A stretch of 21,832 bases of DNA from a virus (IMGVR_UViG_2778261247_000008), one strand, 5' to 3'. Numbered from the stretch's first letter, positions 3,525 through 21,832 are shown. Notes: a model not told the origin generated them from the sequence alone. Program-made: numbers and translations.

Positions 3525-4021
3525 TGCTGCCCCCACAAACAGACTTCACGCTCAATCTCACGGCGAGTCATCAGCCCTTTCCATTGCTTACCGCCAGCAT
3601 ATGTCCAGCGACGTAGTTGATCACATGCACCTTTGATATCGCCCTGGTTGATTTTGCGAAGAAGTGTCGATGTTCTGAAATTGCCTGCACCCACGTTGTA
3701 AACGAACGAGTAAAGAGCACCACGCGTTGTTTCCGGTATATCGACTTTGATGTACGGGTTAATTTGTCTGGCGACAGTAGCAAGGTCTTTATTCAGGAGA
3801 GCTTTGCATTCTGCTTCGGTATACGTTTTACCGAGCATAATGTCTTTTCCTGTATGCCCGTAACATACAGTCCATACACCAACGATGTCTTTGTAGGGGT
3901 TATGTCTCACACCTTCCAGACCATCGTTGCCGCTCGGACCAGAGATGAGCACAGATGCTATGGCAATAGCCCCGCCACCAATAGCAGTTGCGACAGCTTT
4001 GCGTAATGATGACTGCATCAT
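3521..4021 (-). CDS. R: SAR endolysin (phage 21 R-type lysozyme)
   Basis: 166 aa with N-terminal signal-anchor-release segment ([20 protein letters not shown]) followed by a lysozyme domain; near-identical to phage 21 R as recalled. Confidence 0.88.
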
Positions 4022-4385: not shown

Positions 4386-5507
4386 TTACTCAAATAACTT
4401 TTTCACTTCATCAACTGTCTGAAGATAACGTTCACCCTCAATCTCAATACCGATTGCCTGACGACCTAACTTCAGCGCGGCTTTAATAGTAGAGCCTGAT
4501 CCCATAAAGAAATCGGCAACGATATCTCCGGGGCGGGAACTACTTTTTATAATATGTTCCATCATCGCTGCAGGTTTTTCACATGGGTGCTTGCCAGGAT
4601 AATATTGCACAGGAGGAAACTCCCATACATCGGTATAAGGTACATCAGCAGTAACATGAAATGGGCGGCGCAAATTTTCATACTGAGCCTTCAAATCATC
4701 ATACTGCTTCTTTACTTCCTCATAACGCAATTTCAGATCGCTATAACGCTTTTCATGTTCTGAATAATCAACATTAAAAGGATATGGACACGGGACACCG
4801 AGTGAATCTGCCTTCCTGCGAAATAATTCGCATAGTTTATTAAAATCACTTAATGATGGAAGCCGCCACTGCGAATAAGAAAACCAGTGCGAACACATCT
4901 GCTTTCCTGTTGCTGAATTAATGTCTGCGGCTGATATATCTAACTGACGGCGAGCCAGCGAAAAAGCATCAATTAGTGGAGAAAAAATATTTTTTCTTAA
5001 ATCTGCACATTTTGAAGCATAACCTGACTGACCTTTAGCATAACCTGACGCGCCGTAATGCTCTGCAAATAATATTCTTTCAGTGGCAGGAAAATAAGCC
5101 CTTAAACTTTCTTTATGACAACCGCGCCACATACCACTGGGTTTAGCCCAAATGATATGGTTCAGAACATTGAAACGGTCGCGAGTTAATAATTCAATTT
5201 TTGACGCAAGGCGAGAGCCGGTAAACATATACAGGCTGCCATTAGGGGCCAATATCCGCCAAAATTCTGCCAAAAATTCATCAATCCACCCCAAAAAGTC
5301 AGCATCGCTATCCCACTGGTTATCCCATGCGTTAGCCTTTACGCCGAAGTATGGTGGGTCTGTTGCAATCAAATTGACCGAGTTATCAGGGATGGTTTTG
5401 ATAAATTGCAGAGAATCTGCGCAAACGAGTTGCGCGCCATGAATATTAGTGGTTTTGAACATAGCTATTATTTTTTTGCCTGGGTAAGCTAACCCGGCGA
5501 TGCGCAT
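4386..5507 (-). CDS. orphan DNA methyltransferase (beta-class N6-adenine/N4-cytosine, DPPY motif)
   Basis: Motif IV ATDPPYF near the N-terminus, AdoMet motif I DFFMGSGST near the C-terminus, coiled-coil middle. No adjacent restriction endonuclease gene. True start may be the internal ATG at 5460..5462 (MFKTTNIHG...). Confidence 0.85.
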   Translation of the reverse strand: MRIAGLAYPGKKIIAMFKTTNIHGAQLVCADSLQFIKTIPDNSVNLIATDPPYFGVKANAWDNQWDSDADFLGWIDEFLAEFWRILAPNGSLYMFTGSRLASKIELLTRDRFNVLNHIIWAKPSGMWRGCHKESLRAYFPATERILFAEHYGASGYAKGQSGYASKCADLRKNIFSPLIDAFSLARRQLDISAADINSATGKQMCSHWFSYSQWRLPSLSDFNKLCELFRRKADSLGVPCPYPFNVDYSEHEKRYSDLKLRYEEVKKQYDDLKAQYENLRRPFHVTADVPYTDVWEFPPVQYYPGKHPCEKPAAMMEHIIKSSSRPGDIVADFFMGSGSTIKAALKLGRQAIGIEIEGERYLQTVDEVKKLFE

Positions 5508-12167: not shown

Positions 12168-15100
12168 ATGACATTAAACGATTTCTATGCGGATCGCTTT
12201 GGCAGCGATCCGTTCTCGCTAATTGAAGCAGCACGGGATGAACTAACCGAGCTGGCACAGATGGCTGGTATCAACTGGTCTGCCTGTTCCGACAACATCC
12301 AACTCAACCCTCGCGGGGGTGTTGAGCGTTACTCTTCATACAATAAAACATCTCCAGAAGCTCTCGAAAAGAGCCTCAAAGGACGCGTAGAAATTTACTC
12401 CCGGCTGGAACACAGCAAAGGGATTGATTACCCGTTCATTAACTTCGTCCATAAAGGCAGCGATGCTGGCTCATGGAGCGGTTTCTCCTTCCTGTTTTCT
12501 GAATATCGCCGTGAGCAACAACGGAATAATGCGACCGTGGTCGCACAACCGGAAGAAGAACGGGCAAGAATAGAACGTCAGGCCGAAGCACGTCGTCGCC
12601 GTGAAGAACAAAAACGAATTAATGACCTGAAAAACAACCAAATGGACCATGAACGTTTGCTGGGATGGCTGGCATTCCACAGCGCGTGGGAACATGCTCC
12701 TGCAGAAGACGGCTCATGGCCATATGCGATTAAAAAAGGTATTCGTGACGTTTTTAATTCGTGTGATGTGCGTCGCGTGACCAGTCACGACAGCGCAAAA
12801 TGGAGCAGGGGGCCAACCACGTATATGGCTATCCCTCTGGCTCACCTGGACGGTCGTTACGATGGTCGTATTGTGGGTTGGCAGCGAATCGACAAACAAG
12901 GTGGAAAATACCAGACCAGCGCCGTAACCAGCGGCGATTTCGTCGGTGCCTGCTTTGTTATCGGTGAGCTAAAAGGGGCGCAAAACATCGCTGTTACAGA
13001 AGGTTTTGCTACTGGTGCATCCATCTGGCTTGCCACGAAAAAAGATAAACGCTTTGACGCTGTGGTTGTCGCTGTATCCGCTAATAACATGGTTCATGTT
13101 GTGGAACAACTGGTAAACATGTACCCGGCGGCAAAAATCACCTGCGCACTGGATAATGACCGGAAATCAGCCACAGAAGGAAAAGGGAATACCGGCCTGC
13201 GGACTGGCTATGAAATCTTATCGAAATTCAACGATGTCCGCTGCGTCTATCCAACTTTTGAAGACGATCCGCAAATGGAGTGCAGTGACTTCAACGACCT
13301 GCACAAACTGCGTGGACTTCGTGAAACAGCACGTCAACTGTTTGCAACTGCAAACCGCCTGAAAACCGGCACTGATTTGCTATCTCTGACGCTCAACCGC
13401 CTGAAGACAATTAAGCGGGATAACCGTCGTACTTTTGCCAAAGAGCTGCTGAGAGCGGTGGATATTGGCATGCTAACCTGTCCGGTTCCTAACAGTCCGT
13501 CAGACTTATTTAACATGTTCTGCATCGTTCTGCGTGAAATGGGGCTGGAAAATATCTATCGCGCTACGGTAAAAGACCACATTGCCCGTCGCCTGAATAA
13601 AAAGTGCCGTATTGCCCAGGCTCCGCGCTCATTCAGCGAACGCATAACTGATCCCAATAAACGTCCTCAACATATCACCTATAAGCGTTTTGAAACTTCG
13701 GTAATGACCGATGACGTCCTGAAGTATGTGCAATCACTACAGGGGATAGTCATCGTTCGTGCTGGTATGGGTTCCGGCAAATCTACTGGATTGTTACGAC
13801 CTTTAATGCATAGCTCAGAACGTGGTATCTCTGTTGCTCACCGTGTTTCCCTTATTGGTGGCCTGTGGGAAATGATGACAGAAGGAAAAGGTGTAAAAGC
13901 CGATATCCTGCACTATCAGGACCCTGGCTATCAGGAAATGGCTCCATACGCCAGTAAACTGACCATCTGCATAAACTCGATTGTTAAAAACTGCTGGCAA
14001 CCGTTGATGCGCCAGCACGACTATTTTGGCTTTGACGAGGCCACGCAAGGGCTACGTGCCGTTCTTTCCGGTCGGGCTATGGAAAACCCGGTGGCTGTAT
14101 TCAATACGTTAATCGACGCGCTGGCCAGAACGGAACAACACCCAATAATGGTGGATGCTGATGCGAACGATCTGCTGGTTGACCTGGCTGAACTGGCTAT
14201 GAAACGCCGTGAAGAACTAGGTTTACCGGCATGGCTGCAGATCCACGTAATTGAATTACCTGTTGATGTTCGCAACCGCGAAACAGGTGAGCCAATCCGG
14301 GTTTTTTATACAGAAAAAGATCGCATTATGACCGAGGTGGTGAAAGCTGTATCGGATGGCGAAAAAATCATGTTGGCCACCGACAGCTCCACCTTTGCAG
14401 AAGATGTGACAGCCACCCTGAGAATGCATTTTCCTGGTAAGAAATTTCTGTGTGTAAACCAGAAAAACAAACCAGAGCCAGAAGTTGAAGCATTTACCAA
14501 TCAACCGAAAAAGATGGTCAAAAAATACGACGGCCTGATTTATAGCCCGTCTATTTCATCCGGTGTGTCGATTGAGCAAAAACATTTTGACCGTCATTTC
14601 GGCATGTTCTGTGGTGAAGTTGTACCCAGCGACGCAGTGCAAATGCTACGCCGCGACCGTACAGCAAAAGAATTTATTATCGGCTTTGATAAAGCTCGCG
14701 CAAAACGTGAAACTGACCCGCAAAAAATAGAACGAGCATTCGCCCAGGCATTGCTTGCTACCGCAGGCATGAACGGTGAACTGACGGATGTCGTTTTCGA
14801 TGGCGACCGTATATCAATGGGGGTGGCCAATACCGACTTTACCAGGATGAAAATTAAAGCAGCCGCAATTGAAGCGTCTGCGCGTAACGACTACGCCAGC
14901 AACATGATCTGCATCATGCACAGCGACGGTTATAAGGTATCGCCGCTGGCCACCGATTATGCTGCGAATGATATCGGTAAAGATCTGCGTAAAGAAGCGC
15001 GGGATATTGTGTGGGAACAGACACTGGATCTGCATCTCAATACAGAAACTCCACAAGAATCAGAGCGTGAAGAACTGCTAAAAAAACGCGCGCTGACGCT

Positions 15101-16163
15101 TGAAGAACAAGCAAAACTTGTCCGCTGGGATATTGAGAACGAACTGAAACTACCGGTTGAAGAAGGCACGCTGAAATTCTATTTCGATGGTGCTCGAGAC
15201 AAAGTTCGCCGCTATGAAACAATGCTTTTAGATGAGGTAACAGCTCGTCGTTACGACCGGGAAGAAGCAGCCATCAATTTTACCTACGCATACCGTCAGG
15301 CGGGACAGTGGCAATATTTTGTAGTGACCGCGATGACTCGCGAGCAGGCTGATGATGTCTTTAAAACTAAATTCCCTGGAATAATCGACTACAAGGTAAA
15401 AGCTACTCCTACTGTTGAAGTCGGGGCGCGCGGTTTCTATGCGCTTAAATCAGCAACTCTCCGGCAGTACTTTATCGACTGCGGTATCAACCCTGAGACT
15501 ATGACCGGCGAGGCGACTCAGGAGCGTCTCAAATTCGCTCGAGATAACCTCATGACAGCCGAACGCCGTGACCTGTTGAATAACGTTCTGCACATTGGTG
15601 GTTTTATGACGCCAAAAGGGAAGCCTAAAGTGCCGGAAGCGTTGTTTAAAAACATTTGCGACTCTCTTGGCCTTAAAACAGGTAAACGTCGCGGCAGAGA
15701 CGGCGATAAGCGTCCAACCTTGCGTTTTGTTGAGCCTGAATCAGCGGCATTTATGCTGGATATTCTTGTTCAGCGTCAGAAAGATGGCCTAACCCTAAAA
15801 ACGCGTAAAGCCGAGAAGACAGCCATCGAAATGGATCGCGATTTGGATCTCAATATATATATGGATGATAAAACGCGATCCACAAACGAGCAGGTTCAAA
15901 ACGCCCCTCATTCAGTAATTTCTGAGGCTTTGGCCGTATTGCCGGTGGCTGTTCCTGAGTCCTGGGCGATGAGTGCGCTTTCCGGTGAGGAGCTGGCCAC
16001 TATGTCATCATGGTCATCAGCCAGCATAGCTATGACGTTTGCATCTCTGTATCTCACAGAGTTCATGGATCACTTGTCCAGCAATGAATTGCGGCGGTTA
16101 CGAGAATACATTACCGGGAATAGCTCATGCAGCTACGAAGAGCAGGGCGCTTTCTATGGGTAA
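12168..16163 (+). CDS. repA: replication protein RepA, multidomain primase-helicase (N15 RepA-like)
   Basis: Single 1331-aa ORF with Walker A VRAGMGSGKSTGLL in the central region; size and position next to cB match N15 RepA (about 1324 aa, as recalled). Confidence 0.85.
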   Translation: MTLNDFYADRFGSDPFSLIEAARDELTELAQMAGINWSACSDNIQLNPRGGVERYSSYNKTSPEALEKSLKGRVEIYSRLEHSKGIDYPFINFVHKGSDAGSWSGFSFLFSEYRREQQRNNATVVAQPEEERARIERQAEARRRREEQKRINDLKNNQMDHERLLGWLAFHSAWEHAPAEDGSWPYAIKKGIRDVFNSCDVRRVTSHDSAKWSRGPTTYMAIPLAHLDGRYDGRIVGWQRIDKQGGKYQTSAVTSGDFVGACFVIGELKGAQNIAVTEGFATGASIWLATKKDKRFDAVVVAVSANNMVHVVEQLVNMYPAAKITCALDNDRKSATEGKGNTGLRTGYEILSKFNDVRCVYPTFEDDPQMECSDFNDLHKLRGLRETARQLFATANRLKTGTDLLSLTLNRLKTIKRDNRRTFAKELLRAVDIGMLTCPVPNSPSDLFNMFCIVLREMGLENIYRATVKDHIARRLNKKCRIAQAPRSFSERITDPNKRPQHITYKRFETSVMTDDVLKYVQSLQGIVIVRAGMGSGKSTGLLRPLMHSSERGISVAHRVSLIGGLWEMMTEGKGVKADILHYQDPGYQEMAPYASKLTICINSIVKNCWQPLMRQHDYFGFDEATQGLRAVLSGRAMENPVAVFNTLIDALARTEQHPIMVDADANDLLVDLAELAMKRREELGLPAWLQIHVIELPVDVRNRETGEPIRVFYTEKDRIMTEVVKAVSDGEKIMLATDSSTFAEDVTATLRMHFPGKKFLCVNQKNKPEPEVEAFTNQPKKMVKKYDGLIYSPSISSGVSIEQKHFDRHFGMFCGEVVPSDAVQMLRRDRTAKEFIIGFDKARAKRETDPQKIERAFAQALLATAGMNGELTDVVFDGDRISMGVANTDFTRMKIKAAAIEASARNDYASNMICIMHSDGYKVSPLATDYAANDIGKDLRKEARDIVWEQTLDLHLNTETPQESEREELLKKRALTLEEQAKLVRWDIENELKLPVEEGTLKFYFDGARDKVRRYETMLLDEVTARRYDREEAAINFTYAYRQAGQWQYFVVTAMTREQADDVFKTKFPGIIDYKVKATPTVEVGARGFYALKSATLRQYFIDCGINPETMTGEATQERLKFARDNLMTAERRDLLNNVLHIGGFMTPKGKPKVPEALFKNICDSLGLKTGKRRGRDGDKRPTLRFVEPESAAFMLDILVQRQKDGLTLKTRKAEKTAIEMDRDLDLNIYMDDKTRSTNEQVQNAPHSVISEALAVLPVAVPESWAMSALSGEELATMSSWSSASIAMTFASLYLTEFMDHLSSNELRRLREYITGNSSCSYEEQGAFYG
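12530..12545. other. sopC-like palindrome inside repA, opposite orientation (spacer GT)
   Basis: TGCGACC-GT-GGTCGCA, 7-bp arms; on the coding strand all five sites read GCGACCGUGGUCGC in the mRNA sense. Confidence 0.45.
15833..15881. other. candidate replication origin element inside the 3' part of repA
   Basis: GGATCGCG ... CGCGATCC inverted repeat flanking an AT-rich core (ATTTGGATCTCAATATATATATGGATGATAAAA) with GATC sites; N15 ori is reported inside the 3' region of repA (recalled). Confidence 0.3.
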
Positions 16164-16347
16164 TCAGTGGATATTATCTTTGTGTCTCTTGCTTTGTGTG
16201 TTCCAGCAATGGTTTTGGTTCATAGATCGAAAGTCTCACAAGGAAAACATGAAGGCCAGGAAGGCGATGTTTCGTGGTGAACAACTCGCGCAGACTTATC
16301 GTATGTGGAAACGCTTCTATCGTGATTTTTCGGTGAACGGGGAGTAA
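16156..16347 (+). CDS. small hydrophobic/basic protein (63 aa), start overlapping repA stop
   Basis: MGNQWILSLCLLLCVFQQWFWFIDRKSHK...; ATG at 16156 overlaps the repA TAA. Confidence 0.35.
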   Translation: MGNQWILSLCLLLCVFQQWFWFIDRKSHKENMKARKAMFRGEQLAQTYRMWKRFYRDFSVNGE

Positions 16348-16351
16348 AAAT

Positions 16352-16678
16352 ATGTCTACTACTGCATTTTTGGACAAACTTGATTACCGTCAGCTGCAGT
16401 TCTGCCGGGATGAATGCGATCGACGCATTAAGGCTATCCAGGAGGAAGAAAAAAAGGTCGCCTGGGCTGTAACAGATCGTGGCCTTATCTTTGGCTGGTT
16501 CCGTACGGAGGATTACCTGAAAGCAGTGGAATTATTGGCGCGTAAGGCTGCTGAGCGTTGGGAACGAGCCGACAAGGAAAACCCGGAGACGAAGTATGAA
16601 CTGAATCTCTACATCGAGGGCAACCGTCTACCATTGTCAGAGTATAACGCTTTGTTTGCTGATGGTGAGTGGGGTTAA
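16352..16678 (+). CDS. hypothetical protein (108 aa)
   Basis: GGGGAG RBS 7 nt upstream of ATG. Confidence 0.5.
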   Translation: MSTTAFLDKLDYRQLQFCRDECDRRIKAIQEEEKKVAWAVTDRGLIFGWFRTEDYLKAVELLARKAAERWERADKENPETKYELNLYIEGNRLPLSEYNALFADGEWG

Positions 16679-16680
16679 AA

Positions 16681-17076
16681 ATGGCTTTTCAATCATACAA
16701 ATACGAATCCCCTTTGGATAAGGGATACATTCGTATCAAGTTAAGTCGTTCTCAGCATAAGGCTATTTTTAAGGTAAGGAAAATTCGCATATTGGATGCG
16801 TATGCGTATTACTACAACGGTGAAAATGTTGTTGTTGAACACTTTCTTGCACGATGGTTTGTAGCTCTGATTTTTGTCCCTCTCCTGTTAATTGGTACTT
16901 TTGTGGATGGTTTTCCTAGTACATGGCGGGAGATAAAGAAAGGCCTATTCCCGCGTAAGTACGGCAGATTTTCGCAAGATAGCTGGCGAGTTATACCTGG
17001 TAAACATTCTGTGGATGAGCAGCCGATTGTTGATTCCTGGTTGAAGCGTATGGCTGATGCTAAAAAAGTTGATTGA
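16681..17076 (+). CDS. hypothetical membrane protein (131 aa)
   Basis: ATG at 16681 just after the upstream stop; one TM segment (FVALIFVPLLLIGTFV). Track ORF starts at an upstream GTG. Confidence 0.45.
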   Translation: MAFQSYKYESPLDKGYIRIKLSRSQHKAIFKVRKIRILDAYAYYYNGENVVVEHFLARWFVALIFVPLLLIGTFVDGFPSTWREIKKGLFPRKYGRFSQDSWRVIPGKHSVDEQPIVDSWLKRMADAKKVD

Positions 17077-17165
17077 ATAGTGATGACTGTTCAAGTTAAA
17101 CCGTTCTCGGCATATTTTATTTAATGGAATAATACATTATTAATCAAAGAGGTTAAGTTAATATT

Positions 17166-17978
17166 ATGCGTAACAAAAAAACAACAGCTTTATTACTCTC
17201 TCTCTTGTTATTATCTGGATGCACTTATCAATATGATAATAAGGCATCAACGGACGTTGAGTATAAATTCGAAAAAGAAAAAAGAGTACCTATCAACTCT
17301 GTTGGTGATTTTAGCAGCAAAATACTCACAGGTAAGGAATTTAATAGAATTATTGCATCAAAGATAGATGATGGTTCATGGCGTGGATATATCGTTCACT
17401 CATTAACATACGCGCCATACAACAACGTTTTAACATCTCAAGGTTTGTCTATCCCTAGAAGTATCACATACTCAGGAACATATCTTAACCGTGATTTTGT
17501 TGAGAATAGCGGTAGTGATAGCGTGATAACTTCTCGAGATATGTCTGGATGGTATGGTTTTCATGTTGGTTCTTCTGAAATAACAACGCATGGAAACTAT
17601 GTTGGCGTGAATGCTTTGGGAATATCTGCTGATGTAGAAGTGTTAAACACTTTAGGTGCTGAAATTATCTTTGGCAGCACACAAATAAATAAAGAAAATC
17701 CTGAAACAATATGGGCAGATATTGATATAAAAGGACAAATCCCAAAAGATGTTAATGTAAAAGACCTTAGAATTGAATATTTAGCAAAGATAAATGGGTT
17801 AAGCAGTAATCATATTGATGTAACATCACCTACTATTTTTAACCCGTCAGATATGAGCCATAAAACTCAGGTTTTTATGGGTGAGTTATTAGCAGCACGC
17901 CTGATAAATTTTAAAACGGGAGAAATTTACCCAGTACAGTTAGAGTGGGTGTTCCGTTCGCGTGAGGCTTTCTTATAA
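17166..17978 (+). CDS. lipoprotein (270 aa), AT-rich moron-like gene
   Basis: AAGAGG RBS; signal peptide with lipobox MRNKKTTALLLSLLLLSGC; visibly more AT-rich than its flanks. Confidence 0.65.
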   Translation: MRNKKTTALLLSLLLLSGCTYQYDNKASTDVEYKFEKEKRVPINSVGDFSSKILTGKEFNRIIASKIDDGSWRGYIVHSLTYAPYNNVLTSQGLSIPRSITYSGTYLNRDFVENSGSDSVITSRDMSGWYGFHVGSSEITTHGNYVGVNALGISADVEVLNTLGAEIIFGSTQINKENPETIWADIDIKGQIPKDVNVKDLRIEYLAKINGLSSNHIDVTSPTIFNPSDMSHKTQVFMGELLAARLINFKTGEIYPVQLEWVFRSREAFL

Positions 17979-18039
17979 CGGAACAATAACATTGTTCATG
18001 TTGTGATCAGTTGTTCAAGCAAACTATAAAAACACCTGT

Positions 18040-18073
18040 CCCCGTGACTGGTCACGGGGTAAAATGCTTTTTC
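18040..18073 (+). terminator. GC-rich palindrome followed by a T-run; terminator or protein-binding site downstream of the lipoprotein gene
   Basis: CCCCGTGAC-TG-GTCACGGGG then TAAAATGCTTTTT. Confidence 0.4.
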
Positions 18074-18079
18074 AAATTA

Positions 18080-18109
18080 TTGACGTGTGCGTCGTTTTGA
18101 CGGTAAAGT
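18080..18109 (+). promoter_or_regulatory. candidate promoter of the ant-operon leader
   Basis: TTGACG, 18-nt spacer, TAAAGT. Confidence 0.3.
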
Positions 18110-18116
18110 TACTCCG

Positions 18117-18190
18117 CTGCGGCAAATTCCGCAGCCGGGCGTGAGAACCCGGATAAACGAAGCGCACAACACGCGCCAGCGTGTTTTTTT
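18117..18190 (+). ncRNA. candidate c4-like small regulatory RNA / attenuator transcript in the ant-operon leader
   Basis: Two stem-loops (CTGCGG-CAAATT-CCGCAG; CCGGG-CGTGAGAA-CCCGG) followed by an intrinsic terminator (AACACGC-GCCA-GCGTGTT plus T-run). Loop GUGAGAA is complementary to UUCUCAC at 18275..18281 in the downstream leader. Confidence 0.35.
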
Positions 18191-18356
18191 GTGTGTATAT
18201 ACCTGCGCATATCCGATTTATGGTGGCTCAGGCGGGGCTGACTTCGGTCAGGCCGGTTTCTTCGTTTGCCGGTATTCTCACCCCCGCTTGGGCTACCACC
18301 ATTCAAGAGCGTGAGAACTCTGGTGGTAGCACGACCAATTAAACGGAGTGCATACC

Positions 18357-18521
18357 ATGTTCAAATTCAAATTTGCGGCAGTCGTTCGCACAGACAAAAA
18401 GTCACACATCCATCATCTTTCCACCATCGCGTCATCTGAACGGGAAGCTCGTCGCCAGTTCGCCAGCCGGTTTGTCCTGGTATTGTCTGCCCGTATTCCG
18501 GTGCGCGAGGTGGCTGCATGA
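18357..18521 (+). CDS. small protein (54 aa), first gene of the ant operon; possibly Icd-like
   Basis: MFKFKFAAVVRTDKKSHIHHLSTIASSEREARRQFASRFVLVLSARIPVREVAA; GGAG RBS; ATGA overlap with the next ORF. Not in the ORF track (under 60 aa). Confidence 0.4.
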   Translation: MFKFKFAAVVRTDKKSHIHHLSTIASSEREARRQFASRFVLVLSARIPVREVAA

Positions 18522-18748
18522 ATCAGGTAAAAATGAACACTGTTGGCCTGCTGGAATCGTTGGATGAACGTCTGGATCAGGTCTATGCGCTCGTATCATC
18601 AGCCCATCGGACAGTCTCCAGCTGTGAGGCGTCGATTTATCTCTCAGAAGCAGGGAAACTCCTTCAAATTGCGTGTGAGTTAACACACGAAGCACAGGGG
18701 TATTCAGCATCGCTCTCGTCGCAATTGCTAGGCAAGGAGGCTGAATGA
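18518..18748 (+). CDS. hypothetical protein (76 aa), translationally coupled between the small ORF and ant
   Basis: ATGA overlaps at both ends. Confidence 0.45.
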   Translation: MNQVKMNTVGLLESLDERLDQVYALVSSAHRTVSSCEASIYLSEAGKLLQIACELTHEAQGYSASLSSQLLGKEAE

Positions 18749-19530
18749 GCGCGTTAGCAGTTTTTTCCTTTCAGGATGAGCATCAGATACGTGTAGTGAT
18801 GATTAACGGCGAACCGTGGTTTATTGCTGCTGATATTTGCCGTGCTTTAGGTATAGGGAATCCGACAAAAGCTATAAAAAACTTAGATCATGATGAAGTA
18901 GCCCTTACTTCAATTCAGGGCTTAAGTCGAGGTAATGATAAAGCGAATATTGTCAATGAATCAGGTCTATACACCCTGATCCTCCGCTGCCGTGACGCTG
19001 TAAAACAGGGCACGACCGCGTGGCGTTTTCGTAAATGGGTAACGAACGAGGTCTTGCCCTCTATTCGCAAGAATGGAGAGTACGTTTACGTCGAGCCTGA
19101 GCCAATGCGAGCAGCGGAGCCGTTGAACTGGAGGCAGAAGGAGTATCTGCGAGGGCTGATTAACGATATTGCACAAAGTTTTCAATACCGAAATGCCTGG
19201 ATTAGTGGTGTATGGTTGGCTTTGCGTCGGGCGTGTCGTAATCCATCCCCGAACCCCATAACGGTTGATGATTTGCCAGCAATTACGGCAGAACTGCGCC
19301 GGATTTTGACGGCTGCTGAGTCGGCATTGGGGAACATGCGTACGTATGAACGAGAGTTGTTGCGTGATGTCGTTCGTGGGGGTAGGCGGAGTATGTCGTG
19401 TGGTGATTTGCCCATCACCGATATTAACTCTGATCTGGAAAAGGCGTTACCCGCGCATTTTGAACTGGCAGTTCAAAAACTTGAGCAGTTATCCGCGCAG
19501 TTAAAGCCAGCAGAAATCACTAATAAATAG
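18745..19530 (+). CDS. ant: antirepressor with N-terminal BRO-N/Ant domain
   Basis: N-terminal pattern FSFQDEHQIRVVMINGEPWFIAADICRALGIGNPTKAIKNLDHDE is typical of the Bro-N antirepressor domain. Confidence 0.7.
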   Translation: MSALAVFSFQDEHQIRVVMINGEPWFIAADICRALGIGNPTKAIKNLDHDEVALTSIQGLSRGNDKANIVNESGLYTLILRCRDAVKQGTTAWRFRKWVTNEVLPSIRKNGEYVYVEPEPMRAAEPLNWRQKEYLRGLINDIAQSFQYRNAWISGVWLALRRACRNPSPNPITVDDLPAITAELRRILTAAESALGNMRTYERELLRDVVRGGRRSMSCGDLPITDINSDLEKALPAHFELAVQKLEQLSAQLKPAEITNK

Positions 19531-19666
19531 GGTTGACCAGCCCGAATTTATGCCCTTCTTAGAGAAGGGAAGCCTCGCAGTCGGGGCGGTGATGTCTGTG
19601 GTTGCAGCCGCGTTTCCTCCGTTACTTCTGCCCTTTGCAGGGGGCAGGCGAGGTAGGTCACACAAC

Positions 19667-19690
19667 AAGGCACCGTTAATTCGGTGCCTT
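19667..19690. terminator. hairpin between convergent ant and telN (bidirectional terminator candidate)
   Basis: AAGGCACCG-TTAATT-CGGTGCCTT, 9-bp stem, followed on the plus strand by TACTGTATGCTTT. Confidence 0.5.
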
Positions 19691-19701
19691 TACTGTATGC
19701 T

Positions 19702-21603
19702 TTAACCGAAATATGTCAGCCATGCTAACTGCATTGCTGACATGGGGCTGTTTGCACTGCCGGACCACGCATAATTCTGGCCATTATAATGAAACTCAAC
19801 AACGTATGAGCCATCACCAATATTTCTCACCGGCTTAAATACCGGCTTAGATACAGGCGAAGAAGGTGCAGGCGGTTGCTGTTCTTCTACGCTCTCTTCC
19901 TCTTCCTCTTCCTCTTCCTCTATCTCAATTTCGTCGTCATCCAGATCGTCATCCTCTGATAATTCATCCGCCAGTTCAGGTATTGCTTCCTGTTCTTCTT
20001 CGTCAGGCATAACGATTTCTGGAGTATCTATTTTCAGTTGCCATTGTCCGTTTTCGCCAACAAATTGCCCCAGAGCATCAGCAGCAAATTCCAGGTATCG
20101 ACTAATCATTGTTGGGCTAAATTTGAACGCTCTTAGAGTGCTGTTCGTGATTTTTATAGAGGGGTCCTGCTCTACCAGCTGCTTAACTGTGTTATGCAGA
20201 CGAACCCCGGCATCTCCTCTGGCGAATCCAGGCATTTCGTCATCAAGCTGCTGCAATGCTTCCAGCCTGGTATTTTCGTTTCCAGTATTTGGCCTCCATG
20301 TCTTTGAGAAGTTGGCCAGCTTGAATTGCTTATAGTGTAATTGAGTGTTTTCATCGTCATGGCCTAAAATTTCCATAAAGAAAACATCTTCATCTACATT
20401 TTTCCAACGGGGATCTACGCGGAAAAACATTTCATACGCAATGCGGGCATAAATAGCACGACTATCTTTATAAACACGGCGGTCATCTTTGAAAAATGAT
20501 TTAACCCAGGGGTTAAAAGCCTTTGCTAATATGGCATTAATACGTCCGTTTTCAGACCGTGTATCGTTATCTCCATAACCTTTAACGACATCATCAAAAT
20601 CAGATGCTGCTGGGCATGAGCGAAGTACATTTATTAAATAAACAAATGTTTTTGCCTCACATAATGTATATATTTTTCTGGTTATATCATCAGCAGTTCT
20701 TTTTTTAGCTTGACCTAAAAAATCAACGGTATACTTACCAGAAACAGTAAATGTACCTTGATACATAATCTCAATCATTCGTCTTCCTGACAATGCAGCA
20801 AGTGCAAATGCCAAAGGAGCCATACCTGAACGAGTGTTTAGATTATTTAATGTAGCAGGGCTATTTATAATATCGTAAATAGCTTGCATATATTTAGGGT
20901 AGTCAATGACCACTACGTTACGTTTCTTATTGTGTAGAACGTCCGCCCATCGTTGCTGGATAGATGCGCGTTCTGCAGGGCTTAGTTGGAGATGATAGAG
21001 AATCTCATGGTTAACCTTTAGCTGATTCAACTCCTCAAGCAAGGCAGACCCCTGCTGTAGTAATTTATATAAATAATCGCGCTTATCTTTCCAGTTATCA
21101 CTAATTAAATCAGAAATGGCAAATTGCCACTCTTTATATTTATTTGATAATTTTATTAACTTATTATTACTTTTATTATCACCAATTCTGATATTAGATA
21201 AATCTTCGGACAGAGGAATAATTAATTTTAACTTTGCCTGTAAAGCTGACATTCTCCGGCGAATATCGGCAGCAGGTAGAGAAAGCCATGACAATAGCTC
21301 CTCATTATATAAAGGATACTTTTCAGATAGGCGATATATATTTTTTTCAAAACTATGATGAAGTTTATCATCAAACCGTTTTCTGGCCCTGCTCATATAG
21401 GCATTGAATGTGTTGGCTGTAATTCTTTTTTCTAATCCTTTCCCCCGAAACTTTCGCTTGTCATTAAATAATGCATTTTTAAATTTTAATGCAACGGCCT
21501 TTATTTTTTTTGTTTTCTCCCCTTGAGGACGATCAGAGTTATCTATTGACTCAACATCGCTAACAAGTGAGTTTATTAATTCACCGATTTTTACTTTGCT
21601 CAT
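19702..21603 (-). CDS. telN: protelomerase (telomere resolvase) TelN
   Basis: 633 aa; N-terminus MSKVKIGELINSLV...NALFNDKRKFRGKGLEKRITANTFNAYMSRARKRFDDKLHHSF and C-terminus ...GDGSYVVEFHYNGQNYAWSG match N15 TelN (about 631 aa) as recalled. AGGAG RBS; telRL-like palindrome about 150 bp upstream. Confidence 0.9.
   Translation of the reverse strand: MSKVKIGELINSLVSDVESIDNSDRPQGEKTKKIKAVALKFKNALFNDKRKFRGKGLEKRITANTFNAYMSRARKRFDDKLHHSFEKNIYRLSEKYPLYNEELLSWLSLPAADIRRRMSALQAKLKLIIPLSEDLSNIRIGDNKSNNKLIKLSNKYKEWQFAISDLISDNWKDKRDYLYKLLQQGSALLEELNQLKVNHEILYHLQLSPAERASIQQRWADVLHNKKRNVVVIDYPKYMQAIYDIINSPATLNNLNTRSGMAPLAFALAALSGRRMIEIMYQGTFTVSGKYTVDFLGQAKKRTADDITRKIYTLCEAKTFVYLINVLRSCPAASDFDDVVKGYGDNDTRSENGRINAILAKAFNPWVKSFFKDDRRVYKDSRAIYARIAYEMFFRVDPRWKNVDEDVFFMEILGHDDENTQLHYKQFKLANFSKTWRPNTGNENTRLEALQQLDDEMPGFARGDAGVRLHNTVKQLVEQDPSIKITNSTLRAFKFSPTMISRYLEFAADALGQFVGENGQWQLKIDTPEIVMPDEEEQEAIPELADELSEDDDLDDDEIEIEEEEEEEEESVEEQQPPAPSSPVSKPVFKPVRNIGDGSYVVEFHYNGQNYAWSGSANSPMSAMQLAWLTYFG
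19893..19920. repeat. hexanucleotide tandem repeat (TCTTCC)x4 inside telN, encoding a poly-Glu run
   Basis: Four perfect TCTTCC units on the plus strand = (GGAAGA)n on the coding strand = EEEEEEEEE in the acidic linker. Confidence 0.85.
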
Positions 21604-21756: not shown

Positions 21757-21832
21757 TTGTTCTGATGATCAGCACATAATTACCCATTATACGCGCGTAT
21801 AATGGGTAATTATGTGCTGATCATCAGAACAA
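21757..21832. other. telRL-like telomere resolution site: 76-bp perfect palindrome abutting the window end
   Basis: TTGTTCTGATGATCAGCACATAATTACCCATTATACGC|GCGTATAATGGGTAATTATGTGCTGATCATCAGAACAA; the central CCATTATACGCGCGTATAATGG is identical to the N15 telO core as recalled. Confidence 0.8.

Follow-up and report, generated by a model that had tools for sequence, protein, structure and literature searches.

At which site does an N15-like telomere phage begin to copy its DNA, and how is such a site accommodated in a sequence that also encodes a protein? The question is raised by IMGVR_UViG_2778261247_000008, a viral DNA of 21,832 nucleotides (nt), hereafter the window, which carries the gene for a replication initiator, repA. 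A preliminary description had proposed a candidate internal origin at 15797–15905, in the 3′ part of this gene, based on an 8-base-pair (bp) inverted repeat around a 33-bp AT-rich core, on GATC sites and on three nearby copies of AAAACGC. In N15, the origin (ori) sits within repA and replication starts there bidirectionally (PMC4165912, PMC2847241). Our analysis singled out an element of 47–51 bp at 15832–15882, which is probably the core of the kind of RepA-dependent origin that phages of the N15/PY54 family carry within repA.

The full-length alignment of RepA gave 76% amino acid identity to N15 RepA and 50% to PY54 RepA; judged by this comparison, the gene is an ortholog of the N15/PY54 RepA gene, which encodes a primase plus helicase initiator. 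A Pfam match to Herpes_ori_bp (UL9-type helicase) was located at amino acids 522–674 (25.2 bits versus a cut-off of 20) and was restricted to profile positions 46–198 of 820, which comprise the helicase motifs. The match to Toprim_3 at amino acids 274–383 was under the cut-off (22.4 versus 27.2 bits). Ziegelin et al. in 2005 reportedly narrowed the PY54 origin to 212 bp within the 3′ portion of repA and found that PY54 RepA acts in trans with replicon-specific initiation, and Mardanov and Ravin in 2006 are said to have characterised N15 repA and its ori, placing the ori inside repA. A passage of PMC3155836 cites N15 RepA as acting only in cis, so that, on that statement, a negative result with RepA supplied in trans would not be decisive.

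The element combines inverted arms, an AT-rich centre and clustered GATC sites (Table 1). The 8-bp inverted repeat is formed by GGATCGCG at 15833–15840 and CGCGATCC at 15874–15881, with a spacer of 33 nt (15841–15873, 79% A + T) in which TATATATA, at 15854, has its single occurrence in the 21.8-kb window. The repeat extends to 13-nt arms at 15832–15844 and 15870–15882 that are 92% complementary (one mismatch). Arms of 12–13 bp enclose a 25-nt spacer of 72% A + T, and the centre at 15847–15871 is the lowest-GC 25-mer of the whole repA (20% GC). GATC sites are located at 15834, 15846, and 15877; a fourth has decayed to GATG at 15864–15867 in the window and is GATC in Klebsiella-phage lineages. 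The outer two sites form a pair with 39 intervening nt (GATC-N39-GATC) that lies 92% along repA, its end being 283 nt short of the stop codon’s final base. AAAACGC copies near the element were found at 15798, 15870, and 15898, with an inverted copy at 15722. The repeat, the 33-bp core, the GATC sites and the three AAAACGC copies named in the preliminary description were therefore all in place.

From the window sequence alone, the inverted repeat and the AAAACGC copies were not clearly beyond chance. With spacers of 10–40 nt, approximately 13 perfect inverted repeats of 8 bp and 3.3 of 9 bp are expected per window, and AAAACGC was counted nine times versus 5.1 ± 2.3 expected, with 7 of 100 shuffles reaching nine. 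The GATC-N39-GATC pair occurred once versus 0.21 expected, and at least one was present in 19/100 shuffles. GATC was under-represented across the window (46 sites versus approximately 84 expected from base composition), and 15834–15880 was the only 47-nt span holding three of them. The core is highly non-random because of the comparison with relatives, not because of single-sequence statistics.

For that comparison, repA genes were drawn from annotated phage records and from genome and viral contig collections, which yielded 68 unique coding sequences; clustering at 93% nucleotide identity grouped them into 33 lineages, and their protein identities to the window gene spanned 43–100%. Hosts were named for 19 of the repA loci and were all Enterobacterales, which as a group are Dam-positive; most lineages were IMG/VR contigs. 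Exactly one GATC-N39-GATC was present in all 68 genes, always at nt 3666–3714 of the coding sequence and in the same frame.

Synonymous conservation was examined by a codon-level scan, with synonymous identity defined as codon identity among pairs sharing the amino acid. The stretch 15825–15880 was the top peak of the 1331-codon gene (0.83–0.87 versus a mean of 0.46, z = 5.5–5.9), and the same top peak was already present in an earlier scan with six lineages. The preliminary description had put forward synonymous-site conservation across homologs as a check on the origin, and the outcome was decisively in its favour. Per-codon constraint was confined to 15831–15878, with the flanks at background (Mann–Whitney p = 3.5e-6). 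Amino acid identity at 15825–15880 was 0.37–0.45, under the gene average, and the stretch of RepA that holds the element was weakly conserved and prone to insertions and deletions. The rare ATA codon of the AT-rich centre was retained in 99% of comparisons. The second-highest peak, lower than that at 15825–15880, fell on the palindrome at 12530–12545, and the third on that at 12776–12789. The former is homologous to a site annotated in phiKO2 as “putative plasmid partitioning site”, indicating that the scan detects real cis sites.

An ungapped 77-column alignment including N15 and PY54 showed an invariant GATC...T.T...GATC, and the central TATA(T/G)AT motif was invariant or nearly so among the 32 distinct lineage sequences aligned. 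The arms differed by lineage yet were complementary, as in GGATCGCGATTT/AAATCGCGATCC, GATCTAACTTG/CAAGTTGGATC, CTGATCCAGCTTTTA/TAAAAGCTGGATCAG, and TGATCCAGATCTTT/AAAGATCTGGATCA, and lineage-specific perfect arms of 12–15 bp were found in L127, L108, and L016. Arm pairing (columns 15–26 with 52–63 of alignment A2) held in 86.7% of cells versus 72.2% after shuffling, a value reached in none of 500 shuffles. The covariation score of the arms was 0.344 versus 0.129 shuffled (0/500 reaching it) and at most 0.111 with the partners slid, and compensating changes on both sides were observed in 7 of the 12 arm pairs. The inner arm bases read GCGATTT in this phage, TAACTTG in PY54 and CAGATCTTT in an Erwinia-type lineage.

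Four GATCs per 47 bp were counted in 26 of the 33 lineages, three in six and two in one. GATC density was 80/kb in the element versus 4.3/kb in the rest of repA (approximately 18-fold). The inner positions shifted by lineage in a roughly mirror-image manner (+6/+37, +12/+30, and +13/+31), so the number of GATCs is maintained while the inner positions move.

Beyond the shared core, conservation was clade-specific. In the window’s own clade, synonymous constraint ran from 15822 to approximately 15911–15920, with six-codon windows (starts 15822–15903) at 0.79–1.00 versus a clade mean of 0.56; the PY54-like lineages had the extension on the left instead, at approximately 15795–15830. These left and right extensions hint at lineage-specific accessory parts, consistent with an origin that is longer than the core common to all lineages. 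Downstream of the right arm, the synonymous sites of GCCCC(T/A)CA(T/A)TCAGTA were kept in the window, Klebsiella and N15 lineages, not in the PY54-like ones, and this flank may be a lineage-specific accessory origin site. Within the span of the preliminary description, the conserved element is thus real, and its core is narrower (15832–15882). The AAAACGC repeats fared unevenly: the middle copy (15870–15876) is part of the right arm, whereas those at 15798 and 15898 were not conserved even in the closest other lineage, YDC107, and look like chance. AAAACGC as a set of three iterons was rejected, since the count was within chance and the flanking copies were not conserved.

The homologous coordinates of the element are 30145–30191 in N15 (AF064539.1) and 27863–27909 in PY54 (AJ564013.1). 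The N15 repA record U63085.1 carries three annotated 11-nt repeat_regions that lie base-for-base at the homologous position. Across the final 700 nt of repA, the complete N15 genome and KpLi5 showed blastn similarity at 15804–15968 only, a stretch centred on the element. Taken together, the comparisons show that the element is a DNA-level, two-fold symmetric, AT-centred, GATC-rich site under strong purifying selection.

Table 1 Coordinates of the element, of its parts and of other features in the window.
Feature	Position	Strand	Sequence	Basis or remark
repA, replication initiator of 1331 amino acids, Toprim-like primase region and UL9-like superfamily 2 (SF2) helicase	12168..16163	+		Open reading frame list, translation
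Candidate origin core, GATC-N39-GATC, 47 bp, two-fold symmetry	15834..15880			Sole such pair in the window
Left arm, candidate RepA half-site	15832..15844		TGGATCGCGATTT	Inverted-repeat search
Right arm	15870..15882		AAAACGCGATCCA	Inverted-repeat search; includes the element’s only AAAACGC copy
AT-rich centre, candidate DNA-unwinding region	15847..15871		ATCTCAATATATATATGGATGATAA	Base composition
Inner-left GATC	15846..15849		GATC	Three Dam sites with the outer GATCs (15834, 15877)
Clade-specific flank, raised synonymous conservation, possibly accessory origin part	15883..15920			Window, Klebsiella and N15 lineages only
Perfect 16-bp palindrome, sopC-like	12530–12545		TGCGACCGTGGTCGCA	Homologous to phiKO2 “putative plasmid partitioning site”
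Second conserved palindrome	12776–12789		CGTGACCAGTCACG	Third synonymous-conservation peak in repA
Protelomerase gene	19702..21603	-		
telRL-type palindrome, 76 bp, perfect	21757–21832		centred on TACGCGCGTA	Reaches the window’s final base

The origin-core reading is founded on position and family, the GATC-N39-GATC pair, the synonymous peak, the covarying arms, base composition, the single-stranded folding of the region (z = −3.5), GATC density, the U63085.1 repeats and the confined blastn similarity to N15 and KpLi5. Most likely, this PhiR46_1-like phage carries in the element its counterpart by descent of the already known N15/PY54 repA origin, and the find is as such an expected one. It shares with that origin an orthologous gene and a position near the 3′ end, and it aligns gap-free to N15 and PY54 DNA and to the U63085.1 repeats of N15. 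It differs from PY54 in arm sequence (GCGATTT/AAAACGC here, TAACTTG/CAAGTTG in PY54) and from N15 in that its arms are 13 nt with one mismatch, versus 6–8 complementary nt. Three GATCs are present here and in N15, and four in PY54.

Several points weigh against this reading. The 47-bp core alone, smaller than the 212 bp reported as the minimal PY54 origin, may be insufficient, and the outer arms of the N15 clade are degenerate (6–8 bp complementary). GATC conservation could represent the recognition sequence of RepA rather than Dam/SeqA control. The methylase encoded by the phage (4386–5507) belongs to the N6_N4_Mtase family, not to the Dam family, and lends no support to a link with GATC. For the internal origin in the 3′ part of repA suggested by the preliminary description, the synonymous peak and the U63085.1 repeats are joined by the published location of the N15 origin (PMC4165912, PMC2847241), and the proposal is supported.

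A cis site in DNA that serves something other than initiation, such as RepA autoregulation, copy control, incompatibility (handcuffing-like) or a Dam/SeqA-controlled transcription switch through repA, is the alternative that survives best, although we consider it improbable. Conservation, symmetry and GATC clustering demonstrate a function at the DNA level without specifying which, and a symmetric site with Dam targets could equally be an operator. Against this, no promoter-like site was found in or near the element, and the known control region of repA (CB operators and promoter) is upstream of the gene. A least stable, AT-rich centre between inverted sites is also the typical build of an origin core, and the literature puts the N15 ori inside repA (PMC2847241, PMC4165912).

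The element might instead act in the repA mRNA as a hairpin (12–13-bp stem, 25-nt loop) that controls translation, stability or processing, and both the arm covariation and the single-stranded folding of the element region (z = −3.5 versus shuffles) would fit such a stem. G–U pairs were not favoured, however, with approximately 15 G–U cells versus 51 other mismatches, near the 2-in-12 share expected by chance, and the putative loop, with its invariant TATA motif, is the most conserved part. Palindromic GATCs at an exact 43-bp spacing and mobile inner GATCs point to double-stranded DNA and methylation. Rfam gave no family match (best 20 bits versus a gathering score of 95), no terminator T-run was present, and the search for an internal promoter or terminator at the element found neither. 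We therefore hold a hairpin to be very unlikely.

A centromere, or plasmid partition site, recognised by SopB/ParB is less probable still. N15-type prophages scatter such sites, and one N15 centromere site is within repA (PMC2847241). The sopC-like palindrome of the window’s repA is elsewhere, however, as TGCGACCGTGGTCGCA, and the second palindrome lies at 12776–12789. No sopC-like palindrome (TGGGACC-N2-GGTCCCA) was found at the element, and the repA palindromes conform to a consensus (7-bp inverted repeat, 2-bp gap) that bears no relation to the 47-bp element. The palindrome at 12530–12545 has the sopC-like form TGGGACC-N2-GGTCCCA in PY54-like phages. PY54-like lineages also carry a sopC-like TGGGACCGTGGTCACA a few codons downstream of the position of 12776–12789, a region that is the top synonymous peak within the PY54-like clade, and the palindrome at 12776–12789 may be a second centromere site.

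A last alternative, namely chance, conservation of the protein alone or a small gene overlapping the element, could draw on the chance-level inverted repeat and AAAACGC counts of the single sequence and on two small antisense open reading frames (35 and 38 amino acids) that overlap the element. It is already refuted and has a negligible probability: synonymous conservation reaches its maximum for the gene at a place where amino acid identity is low, the antisense frames are broken by stops in 17 and 22 of the 33 lineages, and the arms covary.

The predicted origin core was compared with other classes of origin. In herpes simplex virus (HSV), oriS places a short AT-rich spacer between two initiator sites of opposite orientation. 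Similarly, RepA has a UL9-type SF2 helicase region and the element has inverted arms around an AT-rich spacer; however, no UL9 box (CGTTCGCACTT) is present in the element, the Pfam match omits the C-terminal DNA-binding domain of UL9, RepA carries its own primase, and GATC methylation sites are a bacterial feature. By analogy, the resemblance would be one of working and not of family membership.

The element resembles the 13-mers of oriC and the GATC heptamers of P1 oriR in that GATCs are clustered in an AT-rich region, every one of the 33 lineages having two to four within the 47 bp and 32 of them three or more, whereas its initiator would be the phage’s own helicase-primase. The best DnaA-box candidates at the element were CGATCCACA at 15876 and TCATCCATA at 15860, each with two mismatches, and none was convincing. 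Two-mismatch matches were common across the window (92 versus 67 expected from shuffles), and those at the element were not kept in PY54-like lineages. No IHF consensus was found at the element. A DnaA- or IHF-dependent origin was consequently unsupported.

Iteron origins (F oriS, P1 oriR, R6K, and pSC101) share with the element a cis site for a plasmid-encoded Rep, as predicted here, next to an AT-rich region, whereas the element consists of one unit with two-fold symmetry, situated within the rep gene. No arrays of 17–22-bp direct repeats were found in 15500–16200 beyond two-copy chance matches.

A working scheme for the predicted origin can be drawn. RepA, as a primase-helicase fusion with a UL9-like SF2 helicase, would bind the two 12–13-bp arms as oppositely oriented units, and the 25-bp AT-rich centre between them would melt. 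RepA would then load and prime in both directions, giving bidirectional replication as reported for N15. The variable inner arm bases would probably set replicon specificity. Dam methylation, with SeqA binding to hemimethylated GATCs, may gate re-initiation as at oriC and P1 oriR; this gating is suggested by the invariance of the outer GATCs and the mobility of the inner ones. The GATC spacings of 12, 31, and 43 bp correspond to approximately one, three, and four helical turns, which would place the sites on one face of the helix.

Extended to the family, this becomes a tentative proposal that we think unlikely to hold in full. In it, Dam methylation and sequestration by SeqA would gate the origins of telomere phages, and RepA would initiate at the site only when this is fully methylated, which would couple the linear prophage’s copy number to the host cell cycle; the inner arm bases would be a specificity code letting related telomere phages coexist. 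Our literature search found no paper linking N15-type origins to Dam or SeqA, and neither Dam/SeqA gating nor an inner-arm specificity code was found described for the telomere-phage family.

The window is an N15-like telomere phage, that is, a linear plasmid-prophage. A 701-nt query (15500–16200) was 99.9% identical to Escherichia phage PhiR46_1 (PV340565.1), and the next-closest relatives were N15-like telomere phages of Escherichia, Klebsiella, Enterobacter, and Yersinia. The telRL-type palindrome is an uncut telomere resolution site that adjoins the protelomerase gene; as it is uncut, the sequence is that of the unresolved (virion or circular, or joined) form and not of a hairpin end. The interval between repA and the protelomerase gene (16100–19800) is mosaic, with approximately 54% aligning to PhiR46_1 and approximately 57% to YDC107_1, so the window is not PhiR46_1 itself. 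Within this interval, the open reading frame at 17166–17978 (270 amino acids) had no Pfam match, and that at 18745–19530 is Bro-N antirepressor-like. The methylase gene at 4386–5507, on the minus strand, encodes a 373-amino acid N6_N4_Mtase protein, which is called “DNA adenine methylase” in the PhiR46_1 annotation.

Among the repA loci, L017 (NZ_BMZO01000013.1, Limoniibacter endophyticus), on a 52-kb contig, carries an N15-like repA with 81% identity over the best segment, and its open reading frame is apparently interrupted. Limoniibacter endophyticus is a name that we take to be alphaproteobacterial, and the locus may represent contamination or an unexpected host.

The novelty of the finding is low, since this kind of origin is already known, and the family-wide sequence rules are modestly interesting. 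According to these rules, the origin core would be recognisable by sequence alone, as one GATC-N39-GATC per repA with covarying arms and a TATA(T/G)AT centre, and could be annotated as ori in the many telomere phages that are now coming to light in Klebsiella and E. coli. Such a definition would also be of help in designing minimal linear vectors like those of the pJAZZ type. The ideas of Dam/SeqA control and of replicon specificity are directly testable. The element also provides a clean case of a cis-acting DNA site that overrides codon choice within a gene.

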